This document shows positions 5,001 through 49,789 of a stretch of 64,000 nt of DNA, piece by piece; position 1 is the first letter of the stretch, and every line of letters begins with the position of its first letter. The translations under genes were made by a program, and so were the position numbers. The notes under the pieces were generated by a model. That model ran no database searches. It worked only from the letters and a program-made list of their open reading frames with translations, and was not told where the DNA came from. The DNA is taken from the NCBI GenBank assembly GCA_049889215.1, contig JBMHDV010000020.1:13279-77278 (forward strand), written 5' to 3'. Origin of the DNA: Candidatus Marinamargulisbacteria bacterium. Its GTDB lineage: Bacteria; Margulisbacteria; Marinamargulisbacteria; UBA817.

Positions 5001-8000
5001 ACAGTTATTCCCGGCCCTTCCTCTCGATTTAGATTAAATCTACCCTCTTCAATCGTCATTGTGTTAAAGGCACCTTCTTGAACTGATTCAGACAAATGAT
5101 CCACCATGGGACGCTTCGGCAGCTGTGTTCGAAACCGTTCCGTTTGAATAAGGGTCCGACGTTCGGTTGGCGATAATGATTTATAGGTGTGATCTGTATA
5201 ACCAAATAAATAAAAAATGGCTTTTTCTAGTTCCGGTTGTGCAAATGGTTGATCGACAGAGTTAGAAAGCGCATGATTGATGGTCGTAAACACATCACGC
5301 TTGTCGTCTTGACTTAAATTTGAAAAAAATCGCTGACCAGCTGTATCATCTTGAATTAACACTAAATTTAAAAACCGACATTGATCGTCAAACGACATGG
5401 ATTTATACAGTTTTGGCAAAACAGAACCATCAATCAACCAATTGGTTAATGATGCCAGTGGTGTTACATACTGCGTTAACGCTGATTTCATCTTTTTATT
5501 TTCAGCATTAACCAGCGCATCCATGACATTAACAGCGAGATCCGGTTGGAACTCCAACATCTCTGGCAAGAAACTTAATTGCGCATCAATATCCAACATC
5601 TGAGCAGCTACCGAAGAGTCAGTAGCATCACTTACTTCTATCCCTGAGTTAGTGGCACCCGTTGTTATTCCAGCCACCGACTGACTTGAATTCAAGTCGT
5701 CGTCGGATGCGTCTTTCACCGAAACATCTGGGTTACCTTGTGAATTCGTCGACGGCTGGAAATGACTTTCTCGTGAAAACATAAAGTTGTCCAATAATCG
5801 TGCAGGAACTGTCGCTAAAATATCACGCACTTGTTTTCGATCATTCGTTGTATGAGCCTCATTTAAAATTGCAACAACAACTGGGCCAACCGTTTGTCTA
5901 ATCGCATCAATATCAACCGTCCCCCACGCCAACTGGTGCCAATCGATTTCTTTTAATTTAGTATACAGATCCTTTGACGGCATTGGTTTGCCCCAAAGCA
6001 CCAATTGAACCTCATCTGAATCAGTTTGAACATTCATTGTAGTAGGATCATTTAACTGATCCACAATCAGACTATAGTTCTTATATTGATCAATCGGACG
6101 CTTCTCTGGGGATGAGCGTTTATTTTCACTTGATGATAAGACAGCTTTAAACTCCGAATTTAAATACACACCATGCCGCTGAAAATCCTGTGGAGTTAAC
6201 GCGCTTAAATGAGGCTTTAATCGCTGCTTAAACTGTTTGGCCAAGGATGAATAACCATCTTCCAATGACATTACAAACTGCGCAAGGCCAACCAAACGAG
6301 CCTTTTGTTCTTGCTTATTGGGCTGCTGATCCACCGCTGCCAGTGTTGCATTAAACCGATCAATCAGACGTGACCGATATTGATACCGCCACCCCAATTG
6401 CCGACTCAACGTTGTTGGCGAAAAGGGGCCTGAACCCAATGTGTGGACGGCTGTTTTTCGATCGTACTTTAACGCCTCATTCAACGATTTTGCCATGGTT
6501 TTTGACCGTTCAGGGGACGATAACCAATCATGCATAAATGTTGCCGCAGGGTCTGTCTTTGAACTAAAAAACTCCATCCCGTGCAACAACCGTCGTGCAG
6601 CCTTACCATTGCCCATCTGAAATGCTAAATCAATGATCCCATCACTCCCATTTAACATCACATCCATTTGCTGAGCTTTTGTTAAACTTAACGATCGAAC
6701 CAACGCATAAATTGATTTAGCGCCCCCTTGATTCACAGCCAATAAACGCTTTGCAAAATCCTGGGTTTGTTGTTTAACTTCATCACGTTCACTGATGGAA
6801 TGACTAAGTGCATCTTTAAAAAAGGAGACAATTTCTTCATGACGCTTCCCTTGATGATGGGACATTCGGGTAAATAACTGTGCTAAATTTTGATGCACTC
6901 GAATATCATTTGTTTTTAAGGTTTCCTGCAGGTATGCCAATGACTTACGTAATTGAATATCGTCTTGCTTGTTATCCGCTGCTTTAAATGGATTTAGGTG
7001 AACCACCGTTGCTGCAGTTGCATAAACAGCAAAATGTTGAATATTTTGAGACAACTTACTTAACGGTGCCATTTGAGGATTCAGCATTCGATGAAAAAAT
7101 CGTGACAATTTACTACTGCTTTGTGAATAGTCATCGACTTGATTGGAAATCTTGACCATTTCATCCAACGAAGCAGAGATCCGTTGCAGCAAATCCAATT
7201 GATCCATCTGAACAATCACGTCGTTGTTTTGGCGAGAAAGGTTGATTTTATGCAAGGCTTGAATATCCGCCGAGAGCGTCTTCATTTCCTTAGTAAATTG
7301 GCCAGACAAACGCTCACCACCATACCGAACCACCTGCTTATTTAAACGCCGAATGGCTTGCCAGACGCTGGCTGTTTGTTCAAGCTGGCCCAATGACCCA
7401 GAAAACTCTTTTGTTGACTTGCGAGAGAATACAGATGCAATCGATCGTCCAAGATTTTGGATAAAATTCAACTGAACCGGCTGTGCACCAACCGTTGAGG
7501 GATCCGTTAAATAAGCAGAAACCACAGCCAACGAACGCTGCGCCTTTACGCCATCATTGGTCATAATGGCCTTTGCCAAGCCATCCGCTTGATTGGCCAC
7601 CAATTGGCCATCCGAACGCAAATGGAGCTTGCCCTGATTTTGAGCTGACTTGGACCAGGAATCCACCAGGTTTCTAACTGCCTTTGAAAAGAAACCATCA
7701 AAGTACTTAATTTTAGTCACTAAATCAGCATTCACTTTTTGCTTTGCCTTTTTAATATTAGAAACATACATCATGCGTTCCACCGTAGAACCAGCAACCA
7801 TTTTATTGGCATAGTCTCCTTCAGCTGAGGCCATCACCGCGGCCTGTTTTGCAGCTAGGTCACTGCGTCGAACCGCAGATGCACCCACCCGCAACAGATC
7901 CTCAAAGAAGTTTAAGGCATTATAAAAAACGTTATCCAAAAACTTGGTTGACCAATCGCGTGTCTTTGCAGCATCCACCTGCAACGACGACGACCGTTGT

Positions 8001-11000
8001 TGGGCCCGATAATTTGAATACTGGCTTAATCCCTTCACAACGCCAACTTTAATAAATTGTTGAAATGTCTCAAATCGTTCTTTTTGAATGGCATTAAATA
8101 CACCAACCACTTCACCAGCCAGCGAATATCGATTGCCAAGGTTCTTCATCATCAACGATTTTTTTAAACTCATTAATGAACGTAAACCGCCCGCATATCC
8201 AAGGGACGTGGTCACCGCGCCCAAGTCATCCGCAATTGCCTGATACGCGTCAGCTACCGACTGACCGGCTTTTAACATGGCATCCCATTTGGCAAAAAGT
8301 TGCTTTAACAGCATATGCTGATACGCATTATGCAACCAATTGACACTTTGATATCCCAAACCTATGGCATTTCCTACCCCCGTATTGTTGTAAGCTGAAT
8401 CAAAAATCATATTCTCTTGCTGTGTTGAAAATGCCAAATAATTGGATTCAAATTCACTAGCCGCAGCTAGTGACTGACCCGAATACGGCATGGATGTTCG
8501 GCCAGCCGCCTGTTTTTTTGATGATGAATCAACATCTAATAATTGGTCAGACAATTTATTTTCAACCACACCACCACGAAAATTAATGTAACTTAACATG
8601 ATCCCTTGGAACATGTTGGCAAAGGCTTTCACCATAATAATATCAAGCAATCCAACCGATGCTTTAGCAAATAACTTTGCACCAAAATACAACCCAAAAA
8701 AGATACCTTCATACGTGACTCGCTCAACGCGACGCATGGCATTAAACTTACTATTATTTAACGATACCGCCGTTGACTGCATGGATTGAATCCGTCCCAA
8801 CTCTTCGACGTCATGGGTAACTTCACGTTCAATCACTTGAATTAAATTGCCAAAACCATCCCCGGAAACTTGGCCATCTCCACGCACTGATTTAGTCAAC
8901 GAAGAAATGTAGTTTTTGATGGCCATCATGCGCATAACCGTCAAAATAGATGTCATGCCCAACTCAATAATTTGAGTTCGCTTTGCATTAAACGCGTTAT
9001 AATCCACCGACTGTAAATGATTGGAAAACAACGATAACGACTGACCTTGCTTTAATGGCGGAATCTCAGCTGCCTCTTTTAATAGGTTGAAAGCACCTTT
9101 CCGATAATCCGCCAACGGCTGGTTAGAAAACCGGGAATCTGAAAACAAACCACCAGTTGAGGCACTGACTGTTGGTGCATATGCCGCTGTGTATCGGGCA
9201 TTGGATAAATGTTGAAGATACCCTTCCTTCTGAAAATTATTGGTCCGTATGTATTCCTCAGAATAAGGGTTATTACCAAACCAATTGTAATGCAATGCAT
9301 ACACTTCAAAAATATTAATCGTGGAATCAATTAACTGGCCAAACTTTGGCAGTGCCATCATTGGGGCAATACCGACAGATTTAAAGATGGAGTCTGTAAA
9401 TCGCTCAACACGTGTTTTATCAACATTCACATTATGATTGGTGGCTGACTCGTAATGCGATAATAAATGATCATACAATTGCACATCAACGCCCACCAAA
9501 CCAAAACTTGTTTCGAATATCTTTTGTAAATTTGATGCCACTTTTGCTTTTTGTTGGTTTCCAACCTGAGCACCTAAGGTTGCAATGGTATCGGTAATTA
9601 TCGTAACCAATTGATACATAAACCGTAAGCGTTCCTGAAACAACCGAATATGGTCCTTATGCTGACCAATATTGTACTGGTTTAGCATCACTCGTTTTGA
9701 GCTGGTATCCATTGATAAAAAAGGATCCTTCAAATCAATGCCCAATGCACGCCCTTGTGAAATCAGGCCAGTATTATCTGCCCCATTCAAGGTTTGCTGG
9801 TATCCTGTCATTAAACGTAAAATTCGACTCGAAAAATCCATCGAAAATTGCGCTGAAGGCGCCGATGATTGACCAGAACTTGCGGTTTGAAATAATGGTA
9901 ATTGTTGAGTCGAAGATGCACCAGCGGCTGTTGTTAAACGCTTTGGCACCACATAATGATTACCATTAAAATCTCTTATGTGACCGGCATGAACCAATTC
10001 ATTAAATAATCCTTGCCGATCCGCAGGCGCCGATAAGAAAGATAGGTCATTAACTGTAATTGGGGTTGTGCGAGGATGGGTTTTTAATAATGCATCAACA
10101 TCTTGTTGTTGGGCCAAATACTTGGATGACAATGGCAGTTTATAAATAACGGATTGTTGTGTCAGCTGATTACTGGATTGAACAGTGTCACCCAATTCTT
10201 GCTTCATTTGATCCTTAATATCATCGGGTGAACCATCAATAAGCGGATCTGTTCCCGATTGACCTTGGTTACGCAAGCGTTGAATAATCGCATCTCGATC
10301 TGGCGCAAACACATCACCCAATATTTGCGACGAGAAATGACCTAAAATACCCATTATATTCGTGGCTACATTGTGGCCAGTCGAACCGGGTAAAAACGCC
10401 ATAATCAATGGCTTTAGACCCGTCGAAACCAATGTCCCCACACTTTCACCCATAAAGTCAGCCAAAGGATTATCTTTGCCTGAAATATTCACAGTAAAGG
10501 TGTCAAACATTAACTCAATCGCGTCTTTTGTATGGGATGCAATAATCTCTTCATCAGACATCGACGAATCGGTTTGGAACCGATTTTCAAACATTGATCC
10601 ATCACTAAAGTCAGGAATAAATAAATCAAAAAATTCATCTGGGATCACTGTTCCCATAATGGTTCCTAAATCTTCGATTAATGACCCACCCATGGCAGAT
10701 AAATCATCCAAAAACGAATCGGTTTTTAAGCCCAACTCAGCGGGTGAATGAATGGTTGTTCCCGTTGATGTGTATGAAAACACATCCTCAACATTATAGG
10801 TTGCCTGATACTCCGCCAATGGCATCAGTTGACCAGACACCAACGATGGATCCAATACCATGGTCTGACCATCCATTGGAATGGTCATATACACATGCCC
10901 CTCACGTTGCCCATCAATCGTAACATATGCGGCATGCGACTGTGGCTTCAAGTCAGTTAAACCAGCCTCGTTAAAGGCCGCCAATAATAGGCTATGCTCC

Positions 11001-14000
11001 AAATGAACAAGGTCTTCACAATCCCCACTCAAGCGCTTAGCAACATCACCAACCGGTGCCCAGTCATCCTCAGCACCATCAGAAATATAGGTGGTTTTTG
11101 CTGCCATAAACGAATGAATCGTTTGAATAATTTCAACTGGATCAGTTGGAACCCCAGCGGGAAAACAGGCATCATGAAGCAACGCTTGAACCGCCGGATC
11201 AGACGGATTAATGTAAGTATGTGCATTGGTGTAATCCACAACGGATCTTGGCATAACATCTGTTGGAACCGTTTGAGTGGCACTGGTAGCAAAACCTGTT
11301 GAATCAAGCCCAGGCATGTTGGTTTGAAACGTATCCTCAACCTGACGCTCCAATTGATTAAACGCACCCACCTCTGCAGACATTTTTTGATGCAAGTCCT
11401 GTTCAAGATGATACCCACGCCACGATTCTGCCAAACTTAAAATGGACGATGCCATGGTTAAAAAGATACCCACAACATGGGTCAGTGGCGTTGGCGTTAA
11501 CATTAATAACGCACCAACAATGCTTGTCCAGGTGGATGTAATATCAAGGCCTCGCAAATACGGGTCTGCCAACTTCACCAAATTTAAACGCAATTTATGC
11601 ATTTCATTGATTCGTTCTGTCATTTGAACCGTACTAGAATGCACGGAAGACAACTGCCGTTCAGCAATCCCAATGTGTGATTCCATTAAATTGGATTGCC
11701 AATCGCCATAATGCGATGACGACGTTGCATTACCGTCCAGCTTTTTAGATAAACTTTCAAACAGCTTACTATACGCTGAAGTTAGCGTCATAAAGACGCG
11801 CCGCGACATGGTCATTAACATAAAGTTTTTACGCGCAACATTAATTAAATCAACATTGGCAATTTGAAACCCTGCACCTGCCTCATCAATGGCCGCTGCA
11901 GCTTGAGACAAGTGCAACGTCTTGCCCGACTGTTTATTCACCATCATGCGCTGCAATTGACGAAACTGCTCGTCTGTTAGTTTTCCTTTTACACTAGCAG
12001 GAACTGCCGCAGTTAAATCGATGGCATGCGATTGAATTTCACTATTGTTATCAATATAACCTAAGCCATTGGGGTTATCATCACTTTTTGGTCCTAACAT
12101 TTGCTTTAAGCGTGTTGTTGTTAGGGTATTCTCGTGATTCTTAATATAGTCGTATCGAATACCATAATGTGAACGAGCCGGATAATAGTTTAATATTCCA
12201 GCATCCACGAGTGCAGTTAATACACCCGCTCGATCCGCGGCTGGAATGGTTGAAAATGTTTCAGCTGTAATTGGCGTGTTTTGCTGTAACACAGTTGATA
12301 ATGCAGCCGAAATTTGAGTTTGGTATTTTTTGTAGTTGCTTGTCTCAGGCAAATCAAAGGTCGGGTTTGACGACTGAAACGGAAGTAAATCCGAGGTTGT
12401 TAAATAACTTTTTTGACCATACGTGTTATGGGTAGACTTAATATCTATTGTGCTAGATAATGCATCAAAATCAATCGAAACTGCATCATCTGACTCTCGT
12501 GCCATTAGGTCCATCACACCATGCAGTTGTTCAGACGTATTAAATCGTTGCATTGAAACAACCCCCACACCGCGCTCAGAAAGCGATTTATGGTCCTGCA
12601 ACTGACGGCGAATATTGGCCTCTAATGCGGCCTTATCTAATGTTGTATTCGGGTAACGGGTCAAAAACTGCTCAAACTGTTCTTGGATCAACGCCTTCAT
12701 TCGAATGGCTTCGTCATCCGTTGGATAAAAATCTTTTAAACCTGGCGCTTGATCAACTTGCGTCGCTGTAAATAACGGCACGGTTGCTAAATCAACGCCC
12801 GCCGAAATCATCCCATGCTCATCAATCACACCATTGGCCATCAAAGCTGACCACAAATGCATGGATGTGATTTGCGTGTTATCCTGCGCTTGATCCCACA
12901 ACATAGACGAAAAGTAAGATGGCATCACATTCGCACCAAACTGAGGAACATCAATCATGGCCAGCTGCATGCTCTTGCGGTTATCGCTTAACATATCGTA
13001 GTAATCTTGCTGCAATTGTGCTTTAAATCGTTCACCACGAATTTGATATTCGTTACCTAAAAATGCATCACCCAACTGTTTATCGACTTTGGCGAATTGC
13101 TCATCAACTTTTGATAATGCTGTTTGATAACGTGATTCATTGGTCTTATCGATGGTGGTTTGGAACATATCCATTAATGAGTTAATGGACTGGTTCAGTC
13201 CACTGGTATACCCATTAAATGACTGAACAATTTTTTGACGCTGTTTTGCAGACGACGATGCTGAAGATGCCCCTTCACCCAATTTTGCAGCGATGCTCGA
13301 TGTCATGTCAGACACACTAAATACAGCCGTTAGAATAGCAGATATTTTCGTTTGCAATGTAAACAATCGCGCCAAATCTTGTTGAAGCTTTTGTTGGTTT
13401 ATTCGTACAAATAAGCTATTGGTATCTGAATTTTTCTGATACCCGCCAATAACATACGGCGACACCGTCTGAAATGCACCTTGTGCATGCCCTGCATAAA
13501 TGGGTGTATTCGGCGCGGTTAAACCATTTAGAACCTGCTCAGATAATGTTTCAAACTCACTAAGCGCCTTGGCCAATGGTTCATTTTGAACATCGGTTGC
13601 TGCTAGTGTCGAAAAATAAAAAGCGCGTTGATTCAATAAATCAACCAGCCGTTGATAATGTGAACCAGACCCTCGCAACTCAAAATACGAGGCCATCTTT
13701 GCCATAATGGCAGGGTCTTTCAAGGCTTCTATTTGAATAACACCAGCAGAATTAATGACACCTGATGTTTCTAACACAAAAAATAAATCATTTTTAGACA
13801 CACGATGCGGGGTTTGGCTAACCGAGTGATAAGTCACCAGAGCCTTGCCATTCAATTGAGCATGAGAACGAATCATGCCCGCTGCCTCTAGTGCATTGTA
13901 AACCACCATTTGAGATACACTTAACTGCGAAAAATCAGACGGCTGCAATGGCTGATTAAAGTTTAAACTATGATTTAAGCGTTCATTAATGGCCAAGCGA

Positions 14001-31500: not shown

Positions 31501-34500
31501 TTTCTTTAAAAACGGTTGTAACTTTGCGTTTAGGGCTTTATTTTCTGGTGTTGATACGGTTACTTTATCGTCCTTACTCGGCAATGCCGGTGCATCACCT
31601 TCAGTTGTTGTTACTTGCCCATCCTGACTCGGCAATTCCGGAGCACCACCCTCAGTTGTTGTTACTTGCCCATCCTGACTCGACGATGGAAGTAGTTTCA
31701 CAGCCAAGTTCATCTTCTCTTCATCAGAAAATTTATCAAAGTTTTGTTCCACGGCGTTCTGCAAATTGGTAGGGTTACCACCAACCAATTCGTTAAATGA
31801 AGCCGAATCCAAACGTGCCAACGTACCCAATACTCGCAAGTCCTTGTCATTTAAATTACCTGCTTCAAGTTTTTCACCCATTTGTTTTTTGATAGTGCCT
31901 TTTAATTGTTTTAAAGGTTCATCCATTTTTGCATGCCCTAAAATATCAGAATCCATTTGGCTTGAATGGGACAAGACCTCACATAACACAGCCTGGGCTT
32001 GCAATGGTGTGGTGGTCTTTTCTTTTTGAAACGTTTGAATGGTATGTAACATATCTTGCAAGTTAGCCAAGTCTTGTGAATGCTCATCAACACCTGATTG
32101 CTGTTCCTGCTTAAACTCCTCAATCCCCACTCGAATCATCATTTTAAGGTCCTGTATCGCAGTATTTAGTGTTTTTTCATCTTCCAATGGAGATGGATTG
32201 TTGTCTGTTTTTTCAAAAAGATGACGAAACTCTTGCCGAGCAGTTGCAACCGCAACACGGTCCGATCCAACGGCAGAGTTTTTATGCACTGTTTGAATAA
32301 TATCCAGAGGAACATCAATCCCTTCCCGCGACACTTGCGTCATATCCGCTAAAAACTCAGGATGGTTGTTAATATGCCCACCAACCATTTTAGAAAATTC
32401 TGTATCTTTACCTTCTGCTTGTCGCAATAACCCTTGCATCAACTGATGCGCAATGGGACGTTCCTTATTAAATTTACCCGAAGGCAATGTCTCATGGATC
32501 ATATCTAACACCATCAGTGGGTTTTTTACATCGTTTTTCTGCATCGTTTGAACAGCTTGTGCAAAATCTTGTAAAAAATCTTTAGATAAAGTTCCTTCAT
32601 CTTGTTTAGATTCTATTAATGATTGCAATTCCTTCATGGCCTGAAACTCATCCAACGGTTTCCCCTGCTCTGATTTCATTGCAGCCACCACAGCTTTACA
32701 GCTATTATAATTTGGTTTTTTTGGTGCGGCTGTTGTTGCTGGTGTTGTTGCTGGTGTTGGTGATGACACTTCAGTTTTAGGTGGCACAGCATCACCTTTT
32801 AGGGTTGGGAACTGGGCATCAAGTTCTTTTAAATGTTCTTTTCTTTTGCGAAGTTCGTTCGTTAAATTCTTTAATTGTCTTTTTGCTAGACGCAAGGATC
32901 GTCCTTTGCTTTTGTTCTTATTGTTTATGTTCTTTCCTCTGGTTTCTGTACCGACTTGGGGTGTCAATTGGCGTATGATTCCTTCTTCGTTCTGTATTTT
33001 AGATTCTAAATGTTCAATCATTCTTGTTATCTGACCACGTTTAAATTGCGCATCTGATAACTGCTCACTTCCAGACGACGGAGTCACTTGTTGTAAAGAC
33101 TCAGACTCAAACTTTGCTTCTGTTCGTCTAAGTTCATTTTCTTTTTGAGCAATTACATCTGTTTCCCCTCTTAGCACTGTCTGTGCTTTCGCTAAGCCTT
33201 TTCTTGCTACATCAACCTTATAATTTAAAGACCGTAACGCAGTCTTATTCTCACCAATCTGTTGGTTAAAGCCGTCTATTTGTTGCTCAAGACCTTGTAT
33301 TTTCTTTTCTAAGCCTTCAATGCCTGGGTGTGGTTCTTTAGGTGCGGATGCCAAGTTATTAATCTCGGCTTCTGTTTGTTTAATTTCTTTGTCCAAATCC
33401 CTGGCACTATTTAATAAGGTTTCAAACGCTTGTCTTTGTTCTACCTTATCATCTCCACTCAAATCGATAACTTGACCATTTACCGTACCATCATTATATG
33501 TTTCATCATAAGTTATATCCTCAAGTTTGGATGGCACTGGATAAACACCAACTTGTTTTCCAATGTCTGCAAGTGTAGATTTTAAAAGTGAAACTTTGGC
33601 CCCCAATTCGTTTTTCTTTTCTGTAAACTGTGCCGTCTTCAATCCTTCAATCTCAGCTTTTAAGGTAGAAATTAACTTACCAGCAATTGTTTTCTTCCCT
33701 TCAAGCTTAGCGGTTTCTGCTTTATTGTCATCCACCTTCGCCTGTGCTGCACCCAGGTCTGATTTCGCATCATTCACAGCCTGTTGTTTTGATGCAGCTG
33801 CTGTTTTTGAGGCCTTAATATCACGTTTCAATTGCTCCAATACATTTGTTTGGCGCTCATTCAATCCTGTTTTCTGTGACTCTTTTTGCGGATCCGTTTG
33901 TGTAACTTCTTTCGGGGGAGTCATATTTGTTGATTGTTCCACTTTGGTATCTGGTTTTTGTTGACCAGCCTTGCTGTCGGGATTAATATTACCAACTGGT
34001 TTTCCACCACCAACACCGTCCACTCGATTATCGCCTTTGGACGTGTCCACTTTCGCATTGGTATCAATTTGATCTTGCTTGACAGGCAATGCTTGAGCGG
34101 AACTTAACCCCTTCACCACGGTCTCAATCAAGTTATAGATATGTTGTTTATCCACTGGTTTCACATTGTTATCAGGATCGGTTTGTGTTACTTGGCCAGT
34201 GGTTTCTTTGGCTGTATTTTTTAAAAATTGGTCCCCAGCACTTTTGGTCACCTTTAAACTAGCACTCAACTGCGATGCCTTAATTTCAGGGATGTCTTTA
34301 TCTTTAGCAATATCAATACCGGCAGCACTTAAAAAGTCCCGAACAACACCCGCAGCCTCACTGCCCTTGGCAGCATTTGCAGACTCTATAATCCGCTTTA
34401 CAATAGCATCCGATTCATCAAAATTAATAGATTCTGGTTTACCTGTAAGCGCCTCGTCCACTGGAACATGACTTCCGGTATCCTCCAAACCAGCAAGACG

Positions 34501-37500
34501 TGCAACGGTTGATAGCAACCCTGCTGCAACTTTACTCTCCAACGCCTCACGGGTATTTCCACCACCAGCACCACCACCACCACCAGCACCGCCACTGGAT
34601 GCCTGTTGAATATTTAACTGCTGCGTTGCATGCGAACCAGTCGCAACAGCTGGGCCTGTGCCAGCACCGCCACCCGCTTTTTCTAAAGGCGAATCACCTT
34701 TTCCATTTGGTATCGGTTGACTAGCAGGGCTGACTGCCCCTGAATTACTGCTTGAAGTTGTTGTGGTACCAACCGTACTGTTGGCTGTCGTTCCGCCTTG
34801 GTTACCCGCAGTAGTTACAGTGCCAGTTACACTGTCACCACCAGTATCGCCACCACCACCACCAGCTTCAGACCCTTGGATAGCCCCCGTTGAGGTTAAC
34901 CCTGTCGCACCTGAACTTACGGCACCACCTGTCATTGCCACCCCATTAGGAGTAGAGTTACCACCAACCTTTTGTTGACTTGCAGACATTTCACCTTCAA
35001 CGCCCCCTTTACCAACTCCTAGTGTAGCTGCTGGGGTTCCTTTGCCAGCGGCTGCCGCAACTTTTTCAGCACCACTTTTTGCGTTATGTTCACCAGGTGT
35101 AACTGCCCCACCGCCAGATCCATTCTGACCTTTAGCACCTGATGGTATGGCGATGCCGTTCTGTGCCGCTTTCTCCTCTGCTTTCGCCTTAGCCATCGAT
35201 TCTTTATCTTTTTTAACAGTATCAGCAAGCGCCTTATTTGATTTTTTCAATTCATTTAAACGCTCTCCGGTTGCAGCCATCTCTTTTTCTTTTTTTTCTA
35301 ATTGTTGTTCCAAGTCACTGATATCGACGTCTAATTGAAAACTTTCGTCATCCAACTGATCCATTTCTTCACTGCTTAGTTGTGCCCCCCCCCCGCTTTC
35401 CTCAAGTTCTTTAACAGCTTTCTCGTTCTCTTTACGTTCATTAACCGCTTCTTCAAGTGCTTTTGTTCGATTTAAAATATCTTTTTTCTTATTTTTTATC
35501 TTTTTTTCTAGTTTTTCATCTACCGGCCCACCAGCATCAAGTACGGCCATAATACCAGCCGCTTTATCCATTTGCTCTTTTACAAGCTTTCCTGTTTCTT
35601 TAATCACTTCATCCACTGTCATGCCTCTATCAATCATCCCCTTCATTTCAGGAGGCAGTTTTCGTTTAATCTTCATGACTTCACTATCATTCAAGGCTTT
35701 ATTCATTTCTTGAAATACTTGATTTGAAGCGACACGTGAAAATCGTATTGCAGATCCACCACTCTTTTTAATTTGAGGATTCCTATTCAACTCCATAATA
35801 ATATCCTGAATCTGATTTTTTGATTCAGCATCCACTCTACTTAAAAAGCCACCCTTACCCGTAACAGTATCTTCAATTAATTTTGCTGCCTTGGAATCTG
35901 GTTTAACCCCATACATCTTAATGAGTTCCTTAACCACTATTGTTTTTTGTCTTTCTTTAGTCCCGGCTTTTGCATCCATTAATAAATGCTGACCAGCTTG
36001 CAATTCCATTGCAAGCTCAGCTGCATCACCCGCTTTTTTTCTTTCTTTTTTTCTATCAAATTCTGGCCGTTGAGCAATATAATCTTTTAATTGATTTTTA
36101 TCTTCTTCAAGGGCTTTTCGAATATCTTCCTCAGCTGTCTTTGATTCTCTCAGTTCTTTTTGCTTCTCCAGCATTTCTGGTGTTGGCTGACTGCCCGCGT
36201 CCTGCTTTTTATCTATTTCAGCCTGCCTAGCTTTCTTTTCTGCAATCTTCGCTTTTAAGGCGTCCACCTCTGAGCCTTGAAGTTTTAATTGCTCGTCAAT
36301 TTCTCCAGCTTTCGCCTGTCCCTGTTTTAACCGCTGCTTATCATCCCTAAATTTATGCTGTGCAACTTGTCGCTTCTTGACTAACTCCTTTAATGCAGCA
36401 GAATTACCGGCACCTTTACCCGCAACGGCAGACACCGCCGCTTCTGGTCGTGACTCTGTTGCACCACCACCGCCAGCACTACCCAACGCATCTAAATTTC
36501 TTAATAATTCATTCTCACTGGCCTCTGCTGCAGCATCAGATCCAACCTCGGTACTTTCATTCGGTGGCACCGTTAAGTCAACACCCAATTTTCCACCCAG
36601 CTCATGAATTCGTTGCTTCTTCTCTTTATCATCTCCGGCATCCCTTAATGCCGTCTCTAAGCTTTCTTGCAAGGTATTGGTATCACCACCACTCAAAGAT
36701 TGCATCACATCTGTAATGGCCTTTTCTTCTTTCTTATTTAATACGCCAACACCCATTTTCTTTTGAGGATCGCCTGTGGCATACAATTCTGTCATGCTTG
36801 CCATCAAATTTCTTTTTTCATTAGCATCAGATCCAGCAGCCCCATTTTTTATGTCATTGTTTAAATCAGACAACTGCCGGGTTAACCCCGTTTTATTATT
36901 TTTCAATTTATGATTCAAGCGTGAACGCATGTCAGGCAACCCTCTTGCCCGTAAATTGGCCACCTGGCGTGCCGCATCAGGGCTGGTTAATAATTGTCGA
37001 AAATTTTCTTGGGTAGCCACGTTAAAGTCCTGCAAATTCTCTGATTCTTCCGGGCTACCACTATCCAACATGGCCCGAACCACTTTTGCACCACCGGCTT
37101 GGCTAACTTTATCTAAAAATCCCAATAATTTACTTGGGTCACTTTCTTCCATAAAAACGTCCATCACATTTTCCATATTGGCCGCTGCATTATCGGGCAT
37201 ATTGGCAATCACACCAGCCGCTAGACCTTGCATTTCAGGGCTATCATCGGACATTAATTCCTGCAACATCTCAGTAGCAATGCTGGGGTCTAAACCATTG
37301 GAATTTATCTGAGCACGAGCATTAATATCACTTAATACCTTGGCAACCAACTTGGGGTTTTTTGCCAAAAATTCACGCCGTTTTTTTGCAGACTCACCAG
37401 AGTCATCTTCATCAGCATGTTGGGCAAACAAGGCCATGGCCACGGCATTTTCCTTAACACGCTCCGCACGTTCTTGGGCAATCTCTTTGCTTGTCACAGC

Positions 37501-40500
37501 GTTTCTTTGCCCAAAGTACGCCGCTGATTTTGCGACAGATGCAAGCATCGATCGAACATCTTTCGCTTTAATTTGTCCGGGGTTTTTAATTAAACTCTTT
37601 AATCCAACAACCCCTTGTTTAAACGCCTTAAGAGCTGCACCAATGTTTGAAGCCCCTTTCTTCACGTTTTTCCAAGCTAACTTAAGCCGTGCTTTAAATC
37701 GCTGTAAAGGCGGCCCTGTTTCAGCCTTTGTCTCCAATTCTTCATCGTCTGCGTTTTCTAAAGATGCTTCGTCAAACTTTTTATCTGCAATTTCAGATAA
37801 CTCGATCATTCGATTTGCTGAATCTTCCAAACTAGCATCGACATCCAACTCATCAGCATCGGGCATCAATGTGCTGGACATTTTAGTGGCAATACCACTT
37901 AACCGACCCTCAAAATCACCTTCCTTATCGCCATTAGAGTCACCCTCTGCTGTAAATAGCGCTTCAACGGCAGCATCACCTTCCGCAATGCCCTCTTCAC
38001 GCATTGCTTTATCTTTTGCAAGTTTTTTTCTTGCATTTTTAATTTTCGATTCTTTATTAAACGCTTTTTTTATCGCTGTAACGATACTTTGTGCGGACTG
38101 TTGAATCAATTGCGAAATTAAATCATTCATGCCTGCCAACTCTTTGGCATTCGCAGACGTAAATTGTGCACTCATCGCCCGCGCCTCTAAACCAGATAAC
38201 TGCTTTGCCTCTTCGTCCACATCTTCGCCCATTTCCTCACCAATTGCTTGTGCCTCACCTGCCAATTGTTTTTGTGATGCTTTCCTTTCATCTTTCATTA
38301 CAGCTGCAGCGATCCCCGAAATTAATGATGACACCAGGCCTGCAACAAGATCTCCTACACTATCAAGCAATTCTTCAAGCATTTCGTCCTTTGCCTTATT
38401 TTTTTTACCATCTTTTTTGGATGATTTTTTCACATTGGTAGAGCTAACCTTACTACTTTGATCTTTGGCCTTTTCCTTCTTTTTACTTTTCATCTTTTGT
38501 TTTACAGCCTGTGTTACTCCTAAGCTAACAGCCCCCATAATAGCCGCACGCATGGCACCACTAATATCATTGGCACGGTTTGCCACAGCCTCCATTAATT
38601 GGAACCGCGTATCAATGGCCCGATCGGTTGCCTGCTTTGCCATGCCCTGCAACTGACTTAAACCACCACCAATCGATGCTTGTGCGGTTGATGCCCCCAG
38701 CGAAGCCGCCAAGTTTTTTATCATCTCAGCCTTCGATGCCCCCACTTTTTGCATCACTTCCATCATCTTAAACATTTCCTGGGCCCGACGCTTCATTTTA
38801 ATTTTTGCAGATTGATTCACAAACGTTGAACCAAAGCCAGTCGTGGTGTTTCCTGCTGTTTTTAATGTTTCCTGACCAACATTTTTACGATCTCTTCTTA
38901 GTTGTTTCTCTGTTTTTTCTGCCTCAGAATCGTTCGGATCATCCTTATCCCTATCCGTTTCTTTTTTGTTTTTTTTATTTCTATCCGCTTTTTCAAGCAC
39001 TTGGTTCTCTTCCAGGCCATCCACGAAATTGTATATGATATCTGTAATCTGAGTTGCAGCTTCAGAAATAACCATGGCCACACTTGCCAATATCCGTACG
39101 GCCATCCCCATTTTAGACCCAACACTCGATGCCAGTGCCCCCACCTGAGAAAACGCCAACGCCACCACAGCAATAATTCCTTCCAAAATAAGTTTGTCCA
39201 ACTCCTTCATTTTTTCAAAGCGCTTATTATTTGCATCAATTAACAATTGCTCCCAAATGGTCAGCGTATTGTGCATGGTAAAGTAATGTTGCCCGATCTC
39301 ACCTGTAAAACCGGTACTTGCTTGCATCGCATCATTCCCACCGGTACTCGAAAATCCCAATTTATTGGTCAACGATCGATACGATGCAATGACCATTGTA
39401 AAGTACATTTGAGTCATCATTTCGGCTGCAATTCGTCCTTGAATCCAGTCAAAAAAGTCCTCATCAGAAATCAACTTCGCACCAGACATCTTATAAATGG
39501 CGGAATCAAAAAACATCAATTTATTACCGTCACCAGGATAATGCCGTGTGGATAAACGATACAACACATGATCTTCCAAAGATGCAGACGCCACCCCTTT
39601 TGTATTGGAAGCAATATCAGTTGTTCCTGAATAGATCGTATTGGATTTTGGTGAATCGTACCCATAATCACTCCACCACTCGTTCACCACCTCATCCAAG
39701 GTTAATGTATATGCCTTGGTTGTATCTCCAAGATCATCATTTAGTCGCATTTCATTTTGAGTCACCCATTGCGCCATGTTATCAAGCACCTTTTCTTGAT
39801 GTGGAAACGTGCTGACAGAGTTATAAAGCTTTCCTTCAGGGATACTATTATTAAAACCTAAGGCCGCATAAGCATCCTGATCCAAGTTATATAGCTCTTT
39901 AATTGCTGTCAACTCAGATGTCGAACTACTCATTTGAGTATTGGTCCGCAACGAATCAACGGATTTCAAATAAAACGGATTTTGGGGGATGACAACATAC
40001 TGAAAAAACCGTTTCATAACATCAATCACACCGCTCAACGACTGCGAAAGAATGGGCTGTCGACCAAGCCAGTTCACCGATTCTGTCTGTACAAATGCCA
40101 ACACTTCCAACCCATACGACCAAGCAGCCTCCGCTCGTCTAAAATCAGACTCATAATTGGCCTGACCAATCGCCTGCTGAGTTTGCATAGCGGTTTGAAG
40201 TCCTTCCACAGAATTGGCCATTTTAGTAAAATGTGAGTTGTAAATACCTTCCATAGCAGAACTAACCCGCTGGCGTTCAAATTCACCCAACCGTGTCCCA
40301 ATTAAGGAGATAAACTCTGTCTTCAACTTCATCACCAAAAATGTTTTCTTCATTTTTAATTGAACAACAAATAAGCGGCGCTGCAGCATTTGAAATTTTG
40401 GCCAATCATAACCATAGTAGCCAGTATTATTTGCCGATAAATCAATGGGTTCAACAGCCACGTCAAACATCTCACTTACCAAGGCATGTTCTTCCATTTC

Positions 40501-43500
40501 CAACGTTAAAAATGTTCGCATCTGATTGGTAACCACATCCCCAGCCACCATCCCTGCATTACTGCCTGCAGAAAAATTAATCCCACTAATCCCTTTTGAC
40601 TGATACGCTGGCTGAGAATTGGACTTGCCACCATACTCCGAATCCGCATTAGATGTGTTTACTCCCCGAAAGTCAGGCAATGGTGTACCCGTAGAGTTTT
40701 CATTTGCCATGGTTGATTCAATATCATTCATATCCGTTGAAGTATGCTTTGGCGGAGAATCAAAATTTCCAGTTAACATTATAGAAACAGCCACCCCATC
40801 TGGGTTCACAGTACTAAAACTGGTCTCTCCATAATCAATTTTAGTTGTTAAAAAACGCTCCTCCACAACACTTCCATTTTTCTTAACGGTAAGCTTTGGT
40901 TTTCGATAAGAATTTTGATCAATATCGTAAGTATAGCCCTTTCCATCTGTAAGGCCTGTAAAATCTTTGGGCCCTTTTGGCGTTGGCCCTTCGTAAGCAG
41001 ATGCATTGTATCCAAAAATCTCAAAATCCTCAAAGCCATAACCTAAGTTGGCCGAATTACTGTTTGGCGAATCATACGAATACATCGGCTGGAAAGAACC
41101 AAATGCGTTCTCATAATCCGCTAAGGTATAAAATTCACCGTCGTTTAAGCCAAGTGTTAAATCTATTACCTTTATATCAGTCTTACTAAACTCCTTTTTG
41201 CCATTCACATTTCTTAGGTTAAAATCTCCTGTGTCGTCGTACAAAAGAACCGTATGACTTTGTGGCGCAGCGTTAAAGTGATCACCAAAGCCAACCAAAC
41301 CATTAACAACACGTAACTTGTTTTCGGAAATCCCTTTTTTTACCGCCAAAGATGCCGCTAGTACGGCAAAATCCTCACAGTCCCCTTGTTTTATTGTGGC
41401 AAATTTATCTGGGCTTAACCACACATCTGCACCCAACCCCTCCGATACATATTGAAATTGAGACCCTGACGCTTTTGGCGAAACCTTGTTAAAAATGCTC
41501 TTTAATTTTTCTGTATCGGTACCATTCCCTATTCCTGTAAGTAAAGTAACCAAACCCCCAGGCACGTTCCATTTACCATTGGTTGAAGCCAACCAAGTAT
41601 CCCCATTTATAAAAGTAATTGGTGATTTATAGCCTGATGCTTTTCGAAACTCCGTTCTCGCATCATCAATAGCATCGGCAGTATACGGTTTGGCAAAGTC
41701 ACCTGCCGATGTTATGTTTTGTGCGTTGGTACTTTCACTCAAAACATCCACCGCCATCTTACTGGGGTACCGGGTCTCCATTTGAAATTTAGCTCCCTCT
41801 TCAGCAAGTTTTGCTGAATTCGCAAATGTTTGAGCAACTTGCGCTGCGGTAAGCCAAGCATTAGCAGTAGTTTCATTAGCGGTTCCTAAGGCACTTTTAA
41901 CTGCAGAAAGTGGAGGGTTTGTGGTTGCTAATAAACCAGCTGCCGTAAAATAACCTTTAGCTGCAACCGCAAATGGAAGGTGCGCAAAATACAGCCCAGC
42001 AGCAACCAATGGTGAATATAATTGAATGGCTTTGGCCACCATAATTCCTAAATCTCCAGCGCGTATGGTGGCCATCTTTTGACGATAATAGGCGTTATTC
42101 ACCTCGGTAAATTGGGCTGTTTTTGCATTGATTTGAGAAAACAATTCCATTTGCTTCGAAATACGTTTTTCAACCACCTGCATATCACCCTCCATGGGCG
42201 CTGTCCCAGATGTAGCAACCCCATCCAAGCGTTTTGCTATGGACTGATACGAAGCCACATAGGCCTGAGTCACAAAGTAAAATAAGCGAATCCGATTTTG
42301 CATGGTTAACATGGCATTGTGTGCATTCTTTAATGCATACCAATCCACCGCCATGGTCGGTAATCGCTCAACACCATGCAATGGATGTTGAGATACTTCT
42401 CCCACCCAGCGAATCAATTGATAGTGTTTATCATTTAAAAAATCTTTACCTAAATAATCCGTACCTGTATAAATATAGTTTTTCATATCCTGCAACGTTT
42501 GGTCATGCCAGTTATTGTAATAATCAATTTTCACGTGATCATGCAAAGTCGCCTTTAAAGATCCAGGATCAGACTGAAATATACTCGCATTGGCCTTTTT
42601 ATCCTGAAAAAACGTGTTTGTAAAATGGTACCCGGTTAACTGATAATACCCCGGCTTATTTTCCAATTGCTTAAACACCGGTGACACATTTCTATTCCCC
42701 ACAAATTCATTCATAAAAGTGATGGTATCATCATCATTTTTACCAAGAACCTCTTTCACTTTTGTAAATGGAATAACAAAAGATTCATCATTAAAAGACA
42801 CCACAGGGGTCAATTCTTTTTCTAATGAATTTAATTCTGTTATTTGCTGAATTTGATCCAGTGTTTTCGTCGAAAATTGAGCCGTATGCCGACGCCAATT
42901 AAAGGCTAAATTATTGTAATCTTCTCCAGCAACAAAATACTTCATTGGGCCAATGGCCATCCCACCTTGATTCTGAAAATTACCCACTGTCTCTTTCGAT
43001 ACAACACGGGTATCAAACGGTAAGCGCTCCGATTTCCCATAATCATACGAATACCCCAAACCGGATGCCACCGGTGCTGTTTGAGCTTGAGCACTACTGG
43101 AAGACGGAATGCCAGGTAATGTTGGTACAGTATATCGAGAGTCTTCATCCCCATCCTGTCTCTCTAAAAAATCGCGTGTTGACCAATTGGCACCAAAAGA
43201 TGAAAAATTTTTACCTAACGAATTTGAAAACTTAGTTGGTGGATCAACCTTTGGATCTAAGTTGGCACCATCCTTCACCTTATTATCAAATTTATTCTGG
43301 TCATCAACTGTAATCACCCACGGAGTACTATCAAAAAATGAGTCATCATCATCCAGCACGTCCAACATCTCTTGGATTGTATACGTGTAAAAAGCTGGAT
43401 TGCTACTACTTCCAGTATTAATTACGAGTGATAGTGACGTGTTGACTTGACTCCAATCCTTAACAACAATATCGCTTTGCGGAGGCTTACTTTCAGACTG

Positions 43501-46500
43501 TGCCACGGCTGAATTCTTTGCAGTATTGGTTGTTTCTGACTGAGCTGATTCCATATTTGGATCTGCCCCTTCAATAAATTCACGTCGCACAAATTGATAG
43601 TATGTTGGGTCGTTTTCACCCCAGTAAGTACTCTTTGACGTATTGGTTAAACCAGCCAGATTTTCATCATCAGTTTTACTTAAGTCAATCCTCGTATCCA
43701 TGCTAGAACTAATATCCTTATTCGCAAAAGAATCCACATAGCCAGGTTGACCTGTCTGCCTTGAATACAATTGAATACGATTAAAATCGTATTCGATATT
43801 ACTAAAGTTATAATCATCCAAGCCAACCATCGAATAAAATCGAGCTTGCAATGCCTGATCATCATTATCACTTAAACCATTTGGTTTGGATTCCCCTGTA
43901 ATAAATTGGTAAAAGCTTTTCTCAGGTGGTTTTTTTTCTTCATACATTTGCTTAACCAATGTTTGTGTAAACCGGCCATCACCATCAACATGCTTTTCCG
44001 ATTTCAATTTATTCCAAAAAGCAGTTGATGTGATTGCAGGACTATCAATTTTTCCATTTGTATTAAATTCAAAGATGTCAACAAAATCCAACTCATCAAA
44101 CCGACGCTTTTTTTCCATATAGTAAATGCGTTTTGTGTAATCGGTTTCCCACAAACTCGTTAAATTTTTATAGGCCTCACTTTCAAACCGTTCATAAAAA
44201 GGCATGGCCTTCGAATGAATGTACTTGTATAAATCCGTTGTTTTAAAATTGTCTTTTGTGACGTTGAGTGGCGTTCCACTCCAACGAGGTGCCGCATTTT
44301 GAATCGTTGTATCCTTAAGGTTATTAATCACCCAATCATCTAATTGACTTAAAGCATTCATTCCTTCAAGTCCAGCTCCTTCAAAAAAAGATTTAAATTG
44401 GTCTTGTCGAAAAATCTCATTGTTATTTGTAAACTCATTGGCCCAACCAACGGGGTCATAAGCATTTGCATAAACCTTTACCCCATCCTTTTTGTAATAG
44501 TTAAAGTAAAAATCAATTGGATCAAGATAGCGAGTTTGACCATTAAATATTATTGGAATCCGACGATCCCCCAAAATATCCAATTCCATCTGACGCGCAA
44601 GGGCCGCAAAACTGCCCGGCTGACCTGGCGAAGTATTTAAAATATCATTATATTGATCAGAAAAGTTAATATACTTACCCAACGCTTTGGAATCTGGCAT
44701 TGTAATGGATGCCTGCAGCACCTTTTCCCGATTTTTATTCATTACATACCAATATTCAGCCTCAACCTTTTCCATCATAATGTTTTTCTTAAACGTTTCT
44801 GCGCCAGAAAAAAACACATCCAATAAGGCCGATCCCAAATTTTGAAACTTCATATTTACTTCTTGTTTATACGTTGAATAAATGCCTTGGTTTAAATCAT
44901 CATACGTCTGGGTAAATTGACTAATAAAATATTCAACCTCTTCAACCATTTTAAATACAGCACCTTGCACAGATCGTAAAAATCGTTGACGGGCTTGAAC
45001 TTCACTATGGGGTTGCTGCTCATTCATTAACTGAGACCCAATCCAGTTAAATGTATTTGCATAAGACATTATGGCTGACAAATAACAGTTAAGTATTTGT
45101 ATCTCGTCCAGTACACGTGAGTAGTCAGCCATTACCCGCGCATAATCATACACATAATAGCCATTCCACGTCTGCCCCACATATTTGTTAAGCGTTGTTT
45201 TTGTCAAATTCTCAGACATCGCCTTTAAGCGATTCATTGGTGCTTCAATAAAACCCGTAATACCAACTTCTGTATTAAAGTATTTGGCATTAACATCAAC
45301 ATTCACAATATCCCCAACGCCTACAGGCTCAACAACTGGCGGCGGTGCACTAGATGCACCCTGGTTAACAGTATCCAACGCACTTGTGCCTGGCGTTTCC
45401 CAAAACGCCTTAGAGTTACTATCAACTTTACCTGTGTTTTCTTTAACCACTGTATAGTAATGGGTTGCCTCTCGGTAATAACCTGTTGGATCATTATCAT
45501 CATTTGGATCAGGCGCAGATAACTTTGCACTACCCAACCCCATGGCCGTTAAAAATTTTTGTTTGTTGTTTGCCACATCCTTAAAGGCAGGTTTTGCAGC
45601 TGTATCAATGCGTTGCGCTTCAGCCAATGCATCCAGCGAGCTTGATGCACCATACGACATTAAGGCATGAAACCCAGCAACCCGATCATAAGCTACAAAT
45701 GATTGCACCCCTTGGGCCATCGTCGGGTCAATAACAAAACGTTGGCCATCCAATGTATACGTTAAAATCGTATGGCCCACCAAAGCACCCGTGGTGCCAA
45801 CTGCACCAGCCATTAATTCAATAGATTCCGCAATATCAGAAAACCCCGCATCCACCATTGCACGGGTTAACACACTTGCCGCTAAGTGAGCCAAGTCTTC
45901 ACAATCACCACCACCTAACGCCAGTATTTCGTCCAATGACTGCCACCGATGAACGGGTTCTGGAATATACGAAAAGTCAGCCATTATTTCTGCCACCCGT
46001 GCTGCTACATCTTGAACACTCATGCCGTCATAACCTGATGCAAATGCAGTGGCAACCAAATCAGCAACACCAACATGCATGGCATTAATAACCGTCTCAG
46101 CTTGCACGTAACGCGACCCATTTGGGTACATCATCATCTGCTGCCGCCCCATCAACTCCACTCGTTCATAATTGTCCATGGGCAACAAGTCTACCTGTGA
46201 TGCAGTCAAGCCCAGGTGCTTCCAGCCACCGGCCTCAGGCCATAAAATCCCAAATTCGGCTTCATTAAACACAGTGCGTGCATCATAGGCATGAATATCC
46301 GGACATGACTGGCCATGATGCTCAAAAAATGCCCTCATAACAGCCAACTCTAGGTTAACCAAAGCACGTGCCGACACCGGCCGTTGCAATAAAAATGGGG
46401 CCAATCGTTGATGCGCAGCCACCAACAACCGTGATGCATCAGATACAACAGGAACATCACCCAATACCGTTTGAACCATTGAATCAATAATCGGGTGGTT

Positions 46501-46812: not shown

Positions 46813-47367
46813 TTAGTTGGCCCGGTCTTCGGGTGGCATGGCATAATACACATCCATTAAGCGTGTACCAGTAAAAACATTTCCTGTCTTAATAACCACA
46901 TCTCGAGGAATCATGCGTAAAATTTGTTGCGCCACCAACACCCCATCGGAAGTAAGTGGTAAATCCTCATAATAACGAACCAAATTCATAAATAAATTCA
47001 TTTTATCTTTAAATGCTTGCTGTCGAATGGCAGGTCGAAAATAAGGGTTCTTAAAATACTCATCCAACAAAAATTGCATATACTTTGATTCCGCTAAAGT
47101 TGCAAAAATAGTAATAATTTGTTGCTTTACCTTATCTGATGATTTGGGGAAATAGACCAACATCAAATCATCATCAATTTCTTTAATTCGATACATGAGT
47201 AATTGAACAATAAAAACCGTTAGCTCTAAATCACTGGTCTCTTCCAATAATTCAAGCAAGTCCGCCAAAGGAAACACCGCTGTATCATCCTTTAAATAGT
47301 CCAGCGCCATCATCAATGCCTGACCATCCATATCATCATACATATCCATTAACGAACGCTTTGTCAT
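46813..47367 (-). CDS. hypothetical acidic alpha-helical protein encoded immediately upstream of the 7066-aa gene
   Basis: 184-aa ORF, D/E/L/M-rich, no motif recognised; 87-bp gap to the giant-gene start. Confidence 0.5.
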   Translation of the reverse strand: MTKRSLMDMYDDMDGQALMMALDYLKDDTAVFPLADLLELLEETSDLELTVFIVQLLMYRIKEIDDDLMLVYFPKSSDKVKQQIITIFATLAESKYMQFLLDEYFKNPYFRPAIRQQAFKDKMNLFMNLVRYYEDLPLTSDGVLVAQQILRMIPRDVVIKTGNVFTGTRLMDVYYAMPPEDRAN

Positions 47368-49779: not shown

Positions 49780-49789
49780 GGGGATTTAA

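Follow-up and report, generated by a model that had tools for sequence, protein, structure and literature searches.

The Giant Genes and Their G-D-C-E-D Sites

The DNA analyzed here, referred to as the window, is a stretch of 64,000 nucleotides of a Candidatus Marinamargulisbacteria bacterium (contig JBMHDV010000020.1 of assembly GCA_049889215.1). It contains two giant minus-strand open reading frames (ORFs), A and B, which are flanked by mostly unannotated genes (Table 1). Protein A corresponds to MGC6367180.1, which NCBI annotates as a hypothetical protein. In a six-frame translation of the window, the sequence D-C-E-D occurs four times and each time follows a glycine. Two of these G-D-C-E-D sites lie in A (DCED at aa 278-281, window 14594-14605, and aa 1472-1475, window 11012-11023), two in B (aa 274-277, window 45895-45906, and aa 1782-1785, window 41371-41382), and none elsewhere. 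Since each giant protein contains only 11 cysteines, the motif is expected from composition about 1e-4 times per protein.

The four segments of ~190 aa around these sites can be aligned with each other and share an invariant W, the G-D-C-E-D motif, and an invariant L, H, and D. A family hidden Markov model (HMM) finds exactly four copies in the six frames of the window, termed A1, A2, B1, and B2, and BLAST detects the similarity of A2 and B1 directly (31% identity, E 1.6e-11). Hence, motif count and profile agree with an earlier note on this DNA, which had described four such cores, two in each giant protein. The core itself, given there as G-D-C-E-D followed by G-H and D-P, holds for the aligned Cys, His, and Asp. 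The G-H element is present except in B2, which has S-H, and D-P is not invariant (IDLL in A1, IDLT in B2). Moreover, the Asp of B2 had been sought in DDTGDF, while the aligned triad residue is D1855 in KVIDLT, 31 residues past the His; a ~16-residue insertion separates the two residues in this copy.

Table 1. Giant genes, their domains and repeats, and flanking genes, with positions in the window.
Feature	Window position	Strand	Residues	Details
Giant gene A	2054..15436	-	4460 aa	ORF list; orthologues L003, P0133
Domain A1, BTLCP-like	14270..14845	-	198-389	C279 (14600-14602), H321 (14474-14476), D336 (14429-14431)
Helical repeat R1 of A	12932..13429	-	670-835	Iterated HMMs
Second helical repeat copy of A	11600-11875	-	1188-1279	
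Hydrophobic hairpin-like stretch, A	11420..11527	-	1304-1339	~130 aa upstream of A2; hydropathy scans
Domain A2, BTLCP-like	10718..11272	-	1389-1573	C1473 (11018-11020), H1514 (10895-10897), D1529 (10850-10852)
Third helical repeat copy of A	9371-9709	-	1910-2022	
Fourth helical repeat copy of A	8750-9022	-	2139-2229	
Second hydrophobic stretch, A	8585..8704	-	2245-2284	Directly past helical repeat 4
Variable C-terminal third of A	2057..6139	-	~3100-4460	~20% identity to orthologue
Giant gene B	25525..46725	-	7066 aa	From listed TTG start; ORF list; orthologues L005, L008, L007, L004, L002
Domain B1, BTLCP-like	45586..46134	-	198-380	C275 (45901-45903), H318 (45772-45774), D333 (45727-45729)
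Helical repeat R1 of B	44683..45177	-	517-681	Iterated HMMs
Further helical repeat copy of B	42067-42351	-	1459-1553	
Weaker equivalent hydrophobic stretch, B	41953..42051	-	1559-1591	Upstream of B2
Domain B2, BTLCP-like	41005..41652	-	1692-1907	C1783 (41377-41379), H1824 (41254-41256), D1855 (41161-41163)
Further helical repeat copy of B	40129-40434	-	2098-2199	
Hydrophobic stretch, B	39034..39210	-	2506-2564	
Further helical repeat copy of B	38566-38850	-	2626-2720	
Hydrophobic stretch, B	38290-38370	-	2786-2812	
Gene directly upstream of B	46813..47367	-	184 aa	51-56% identity, syntenic in orthologous loci
Three genes downstream of B	24604-25509, 23480-24343, 22505-23386	-	~290-300 aa each	ORF list

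Homology to the BTLCP Family

The cut-off of the Pfam family Transglut_core (PF01841; 23 bits) is reached by the A1 segment (23.3 bits), by the whole of A (24.6 bits), and by the N-terminal half of B (26.5 bits). As isolated segments, B1 and B2 score 16-19 bits and A2 gives no match. A profile of the four segments matches the solved LapG of Legionella (4fgo, E 2.9e-5) with the GDCED motif aligned, and likewise the Pseudomonas LapG 4u65_E. The region of the nucleophile reads GGGDCEDFA in the former and GAGDCEDYA in the latter. Alignment of the giant-protein domains to 33 canonical PF06035 proteins with hhalign superposes the C, H, and D columns at a probability of 98.2% (E 6e-14). Furthermore, an HMM built solely from canonical bacterial transglutaminase-like cysteine proteinases (BTLCPs) finds all four sites and has no other significant match in A or B; the independent domain E-values are 9e-13 for B2, 2e-6 for B1, 3e-5 for A1, and 6e-5 for A2. 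The Cys-His-Asp triad of all four copies aligns with that of LapG, DvhG, and HvyA. An Asp in an upstream D-x-W loop, which in this family joins the acidic residues flanking the Cys in the Ca2+ site, is kept in A1, A2, and B2, while B1 has H-R-W at this position. In an unbootstrapped neighbor-joining tree, the giant-protein domains form a clade separate from the canonical BTLCPs. The Pfam, LapG-profile, and hhalign matches, together with the Foldseek matches described below, all agree with the transglutaminase-like/papain-fold superfamily that had been proposed for the four cores.

The acidic residues around the nucleophile had been regarded as unusual and as the possible mark of a distinct subfamily, which does not hold. 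The same GDCED is found in the solved LapG proteins, and the 33 canonical PF06035 proteins show no variation at G, D, C, and E and almost none at the second D (at least 90% conserved). LapG and DvhG are Ca2+-dependent proteases (PMC13090378; PMC4359373). DvhG is inactivated by C317A and equally by D316A/E318A, which alters the residues of the calcium site on either side of Cys317 (PMC13090378). HvyA needs C192, H226, and D241, and its function is impaired by D194G, that is, by loss of the Asp two positions past the Cys (PMC4241560). Because of this conservation in canonical proteins and the mutant data for DvhG and HvyA, D-C-E-D is to be read as the known calcium-site signature of BTLCPs. As the marker of a new subfamily it is ruled out, being a hallmark of BTLCPs (MEROPS C93, Pfam PF06035). 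On these sequence comparisons, each of the four sites is the predicted, and in our view probable, active center of a ~190-aa domain homologous to BTLCPs such as LapG and DvhG.

Predicted Structures and Type of Reaction

AlphaFold2 models were obtained for A1 (A aa 110-420) and B2 (B aa 1672-1922), with 43 sequences in each alignment. The mean predicted local distance difference test score (pLDDT) is 69.5 for A1, whose core lies mostly at 85-98 with two blocks at 72-74, and 71.3 for B2, whose core lies mostly at 86-96 with dips to 62-72. The 10-residue blocks containing the triad residues lie at 72-95. In both models a helix begins with the Cys (C279, C1783), the His (H321, H1824) lies within a strand, and the Asp (D336, D1855) follows immediately after the next β-strand. 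By secondary-structure position, the models thus place Cys, His, and Asp in the papain/transglutaminase arrangement. A Foldseek search of the PDB ranks LapG first for A1 (E 1e-5) and for B2 (E 1e-7), with TM scores of 0.54-0.57 normalized to LapG, and the six best matches of the B2 model are all LapG. Next come other cysteine peptidases of the transglutaminase-like type (3isr, PeiP/PeiW, CPR-C4, vasohibin), and TGase 2 is matched as well. For these two segments, the models therefore point to the fold that the earlier note had expected, with LapG as top match.

The fold leaves room for different chemistry. Transamidation (cross-linking), deamidation, or another acyl transfer, which might for instance link giant proteins into a surface layer or envelope, is allowed by a transglutaminase-like fold just as hydrolysis is, and Transglut_core is matched at threshold. 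BTLCP domains have also been suggested to be capable of cross-linking, hydrolysis, or deamidation (PMC4241560). However, LapG and DvhG, the nearest relatives of known activity, are proteases, and LapG also provides the nearest structural matches, so that we consider an acyl-transfer function distinctly unlikely.

A Family of Giant Proteins

When 1.84 billion representative proteins were scanned with HMMER, 2077 matches were obtained, of which 135 lie below 1e-10. Among the best 146 of the 2077, 65 proteins are at least 1500 aa long and 33 at least 4000 aa, with a maximum of 7805 aa; nearly all of the long ones carry a single DCE[DN] domain, mostly within residues ~80-400. In a genome scan, relatives were found almost exclusively in metagenome-assembled genomes (MAGs) of Margulisbacteria (Marinamargulisbacteria, Margulisiibacteriota, UBA817, Termititenax). 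An extra homologue search starting from the domains of distant giant proteins returned just five matches, none longer than 370 aa, named only as hypothetical proteins of Termititenax and Margulisbacteria.

Across 148 family domains, the triad Cys is present in 143, the His in 138, and the Asp in 130 (plus six Glu and three Asn). The putative calcium-site residues are similarly conserved, with Asp(-1) in 143, Glu(+1) in 143, and Asp(+2) in 140 domains. The exceptions include truncated sequences and a small number of second copies that have degenerated. Conservation of catalytic and Ca2+ residues on this scale argues for active enzymes. The domains could instead be non-catalytic binding or folding modules (pseudo-enzymes), or the motif could recur by chance or low complexity. 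Degenerate copies do exist in the family, where a second, adjacent BTLCP-like copy has lost Cys and His and lies directly after the active one (P0226, P0229, P0181) or directly before it (P0275, P0258). Yet Cys, His, Asp, and the acidic Ca2+ residues are retained in each of the four window copies, these positions are kept in 88-97% of the 148 domains, and chance would produce GDCED at the very low rate given above, which makes this explanation highly improbable. The tandem of enzyme and pseudo-enzyme in these five family members differs from A and B, each of which has two intact and widely spaced copies.

L003, the orthologue of A, shares 33% identity with it along ~3100 aa (A aa 14-3103). The orthologues of B (L005, L008, L007, L004, L002) are 32-42% identical and have syntenic flanking genes. 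The two-domain layout is kept in L003, L005, L007, and L008; full-length representatives that show it are P0133 (4380 aa), P0135 (7287 aa), P0138 (6710 aa), and P0143 (6683 aa). In A and B, the BTLCP domains rank with the best-conserved regions; the most conserved 100-aa block of A with respect to P0133 is aa 1401-1500 in A2 (56% identity). By contrast with these regions, the last third of A and the second half of B have ~15-20% identity to orthologues, and these C-terminal parts are effectively free to vary. Both variable parts contain an in-frame tandem DNA repeat, at 4839-5075 in A (81 bp x 2.9, 96% matches, 27-aa unit) and at 31571-31682 in B (51 bp x 2.2).

Many members are recovered in pieces. 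The closest metagenomic relatives of A and B (L001 and L002; ENA ERZ28548062 and ERZ28548069) consist of many short ORFs on contigs whose coverage is very low (0.19-0.45), and the 90%-identity cluster of A comprises 14 fragments of 95-1516 aa. Giant genes of this giant-protein family are thus systematically split and under-counted in protein databases. A 7732-aa member, P0184, is encoded on a 102-kb contig with NusA, IF-2, and acetyl-CoA synthetase (L019; GCA_013558375.1, contig JACCDG010709003.1). The contig looks bacterial. Judging from how its contigs are numbered, the assembly seems to stem from a very large project, possibly on a eukaryotic host, and this member may therefore represent a host-associated relative. 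In addition, proteins of 170-400 aa with a W...G-D-C-E-D...H core occur in MAGs of Pacearchaeota, Sulfolobales, Dehalococcoidia, and Omnitrophota (L010, L014, L015, L017, L018). Thus, the G-D-C-E-D type of transglutaminase-like domain is more widespread than the PF06035 annotation suggests.

Architecture Outside the BTLCP-Like Domains

Pfam, NCBIfam, and PDB sequence searches with the full A and B proteins revealed no recognizable domain beyond the four described above. A and B are paralogous, with similarity in several blocks over the first ~2700 residues. Iterated HMMs built from orthologues uncovered a helical repeat of ~100 aa in both proteins (Table 1), and a PDB search with its profile gave only insignificant matches of the coiled-coil type. 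In A, a hydrophobic hairpin-like stretch comes after repeat 2 (1304-1339) and another after repeat 4 (2245-2284). All orthologues compared (P0133, L003, P0135, P0138, P0143, and L005) have a conserved hydrophobic stretch that precedes their second BTLCP domain by 130-200 aa.

The order BTLCP domain, repeat, repeat plus hairpin thus occurs twice. This points to an ancient duplication, within the protein, of a module of ~1000 aa from which the second BTLCP copy would have arisen. In a neighbor-joining tree that carries no support values, A2 groups with the N-terminal-type copies and the B2-type copies branch apart. The tree does not settle whether the internal copies of A and B have a common origin; the repeat and hairpin shared upstream of them argue for it.

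Possible Function of the Embedded Domains

The free Ca2+ concentration is low in the bacterial cytoplasm. Together with the conserved Ca2+ site, this implies that the domains should act only once they are outside the cytoplasm. The four domains would then be active, Ca2+-requiring cysteine peptidases of the BTLCP type, which would switch on where Ca2+ is high, namely outside the cytoplasm in seawater or a host compartment. Their target might be the giant protein itself, cut either in cis or, with A and B acting on each other, in trans, or else a surface protein in close association with it. Judging from residue conservation and homology, we regard such Ca2+-gated peptidases, acting outside the cytoplasm on the giant protein, its paralogue, or an associated surface protein, as reasonably likely. 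The giant protein or its paralogue would be the most economical substrate and self-processing, which the earlier note had suggested beside dual activities, is plausible, given one protease per module and by analogy to the peptidase domains of Omnitrophota giant proteins and the cysteine protease domains (CPDs) of large toxins (see below).

Several observations weigh against this scheme. First, the specific BTLCP family of Pfam, PF06035 (Peptidase_C93; gathering cut-off 27 bits), is not reached: B2 scores best with 19.8 bits, and A1, A2, and B1 have no match in the Pfam scan. Second, the AlphaFold2 alignments are dominated by canonical BTLCPs, so that the LapG-like models are not fully independent evidence. 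Third, the N-termini of A and B are polar, with no signal-peptide-like stretch (by inspection and hydropathy, not with a signal-peptide predictor), and no secretion-system genes were recognizable by Pfam among the window ORFs of at least 150 aa; with neither a visible leader nor secretion genes, export of A and B is assumed. Fourth, no LapG-type [T/A/P]AAG site is conserved in A, B, and their orthologues. Protein A has one TAAG at aa 1836 (~0.28 expected), which is absent in its orthologue P0133, and B has two [T/A/P]AAG sites (0.9 expected), with no di-alanine kept across the B family.

Cleavage in cis at LapG-type sites was considered as a candidate and rejected, since such sites are not conserved. 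An AAA that is conserved in the A family (aa 1180-1182) does not correspond to a LapG motif.

Alternatively, the BTLCP-like domains might be effector or enzymatic heads that cleave other proteins (surface proteins of host, prey, or neighbor cells, or the cell's own adhesins) and leave the giant protein intact. In large modular toxins, enzymatic heads are N-terminal, and the N-terminal BTLCP domain, a position found in nearly all family members, resembles this arrangement. LapG and DvhG, the characterized proteases among the BTLCPs, cut separate proteins in trans, the missing cleavage motif within A, B, and their orthologues agrees with a foreign target, and fast-diverging C-terminal parts would fit variable target binding. 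Moreover, some Marinamargulisbacteria are host-associated (PMC6784892). On the other hand, such heads have no known target, the window provides no recognized secretion system or signal for them either, and the family is also found in MAGs from open-water samples. We therefore hold an effector role to be rather unlikely, though it deserves to be kept in mind beside Ca2+-gated processing of the giant proteins.

Processing of the giant proteins could be part of a more elaborate scheme, which we consider unlikely and put forward as speculation. A and B might be self-contained, Ca2+-triggered, self-cleaving polyproteins that unite a system of the LapG-LapA type in one chain, with one protease per membrane-inserting module of ~1000 aa. 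Export would follow an unrecognized route, possibly coupled to the FlgE/FlgG-like gene cluster described below, and, once the proteins reach a host vacuole or seawater rich in Ca2+, cleavage would set free or activate their variable C-terminal parts.

Comparison With Known Systems and Significance

Multi-thousand-residue proteins with an internal cysteine protease are known from MARTX and large clostridial toxins, which have hydrophobic membrane-insertion regions and a CPD (MEROPS C80) that is activated by a small ligand present only at its destination. The resemblance to A and B is one of functional analogy only, as fold and clan differ. The activating ligand is InsP6 for C80 CPDs, whereas Ca2+ is proposed for the domains of A and B, and Pfam detects no Peptidase_C80 in either protein, transglutaminase-like families being the only significant ones.

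The closest known systems are LapG and DvhG. The likeness lies in the homologous domain, the GDCED at the nucleophile, the order Cys-His-Asp at similar spacing, the upstream D-x-W, a link to giant proteins, and the rank of LapG as best structural match to the A1 and B2 models. However, LapG and DvhG, which release giant adhesins, are stand-alone periplasmic proteins of ~200-330 aa with a signal peptide or membrane anchor, whereas here the domain is embedded twice in each protein of 4460 or 7066 aa. A c-di-GMP receptor, LapD or DvhD, controls LapG and DvhG, whose substrate is a separate adhesin of a type 1 secretion system (T1SS) that has an N-terminal retention module and is cut at [T/A/P]AAG. 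In contrast, the genes neighboring A and B in the 64-kb window have no Pfam match at all, hence none to LapD or T1SS families, and A and B differ from the Lap and Dvh proteins also in the missing conserved cleavage site, in showing no leader on inspection, and in the sub-threshold PF06035 score. HvyA, a BTLCP that restricts capsulation in Caulobacter, shares the required C/H/D triad and the important Asp two positions past the Cys (D194G) but is a stand-alone periplasmic protein of 272 aa that carries a Sec signal (PMC4241560), rather than a domain of a giant protein.

Giant ORFs have also been surveyed in uncultured phyla, and in this respect A and B resemble the proteins reported from Omnitrophota and Margulisbacteria. 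The giant proteins of Omnitrophota (“Archaeovorins”) have N-terminal peptidase domains (C39, S8) that have been proposed to cut the giant protein (bioRxiv 10.1101/2023.11.21.568195). Margulisbacteria are listed among the most enriched bacterial phyla for huge proteins, none of which has a functional assignment (PMC11573180). Unlike the proteins of these surveys, A and B lack glycosyl-hydrolase, glycosyl-transferase, dockerin, and SecA-like domains in Pfam scans. Transglutaminase-like or BTLCP domains are not mentioned in either survey (PMC11573180; bioRxiv 10.1101/2023.11.21.568195), and no description of BTLCP domains inside giant proteins was found in the literature searched.

Fold, triad, and D-C-E-D motif were all known before, and nothing is overturned. 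What is new is the context, i.e., a known catalytic domain within conserved and widespread giant proteins, so far chiefly of Margulisbacteria. The BTLCP family, so far one of small periplasmic proteins that regulate giant adhesins, thereby comes to include domains within giant proteins, and one may ask whether evolution joined protease and substrate or separated them. As the BTLCP-like domain or domains are the only recognizable part of these giant proteins, a conserved domain that has the Ca2+-site residues and is apparently active by residue conservation offers a first experimental handle on an uncharacterized giant family. We see in this a useful annotation and a starting point for experiments, not a new principle.

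Genomic Neighborhood

The genes at 15.5-25.5 kb and at 46.8-52.6 kb belong to no Pfam or NCBIfam family and are similar neither to each other nor to A or B; the products of 46813-47367 and 48799-49779 have sub-threshold family matches well below cut-off. Loci L019 and L020 have genes upstream of distant giants that resemble the 184-aa gene upstream of B (Table 1) in size, with no detectable similarity to it; for the 182-aa gene upstream of the distant giant P0184, the comparison gave an E-value of 0.21. Of the three genes of ~290-300 aa downstream of B, two are matched by homologues that lie upstream of the A orthologue in L001. On the P0135 contig and in L020, which has two giant genes, the giant genes are likewise followed by series of genes of ~220-370 aa.

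A cluster of four plus-strand genes (48799-53465; 326, 268, 588, and 294 aa) is divergent from B. The last of them encodes a genuine FlgE/FlgG homologue (TIGR03506, 96 bits; FlgE 5jxl in the PDB, E 5e-14), and the other three belong to no recognizable family. The cluster is syntenic beside the orthologue of giant gene B in L002, L005, and L008. On the P0135 contig, whose giant protein is 25-29% identical to B, it lies immediately upstream of the giant gene and in the same orientation, and a second giant gene follows further on, past a BolA gene. In L021, a homologue of the 588-aa cluster protein is encoded ~6 kb from a giant gene. The linkage between the FlgE/FlgG cluster and the giant genes is suggestive but could reflect shared ancestry alone.

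Neither GGDEF, EAL, and HD-GYP nor ABC, MFP, and TolC families have a Pfam or NCBIfam match among the ORFs scanned in the window, and the window contains no tRNA or Rfam RNA. Between the trio of genes downstream of B and gene A, four overlapping, operon-like ORFs of 363, 771, 451, and 431 aa occupy 15559-21565 on the minus strand. All four have internal hydrophobic stretches, and the three longer ones have polar, low-complexity N-termini. They belong to no Pfam or NCBIfam family and have no homologue among the compared loci or the 146 family representatives. The first of the four (15559-16650) is rich in Cys and might be a spurious ORF. Finally, two adjacent, overlapping minus-strand ORFs of 123 and 116 aa at 987-1705 are very hydrophobic and, by appearance, look like paired small membrane transporters.

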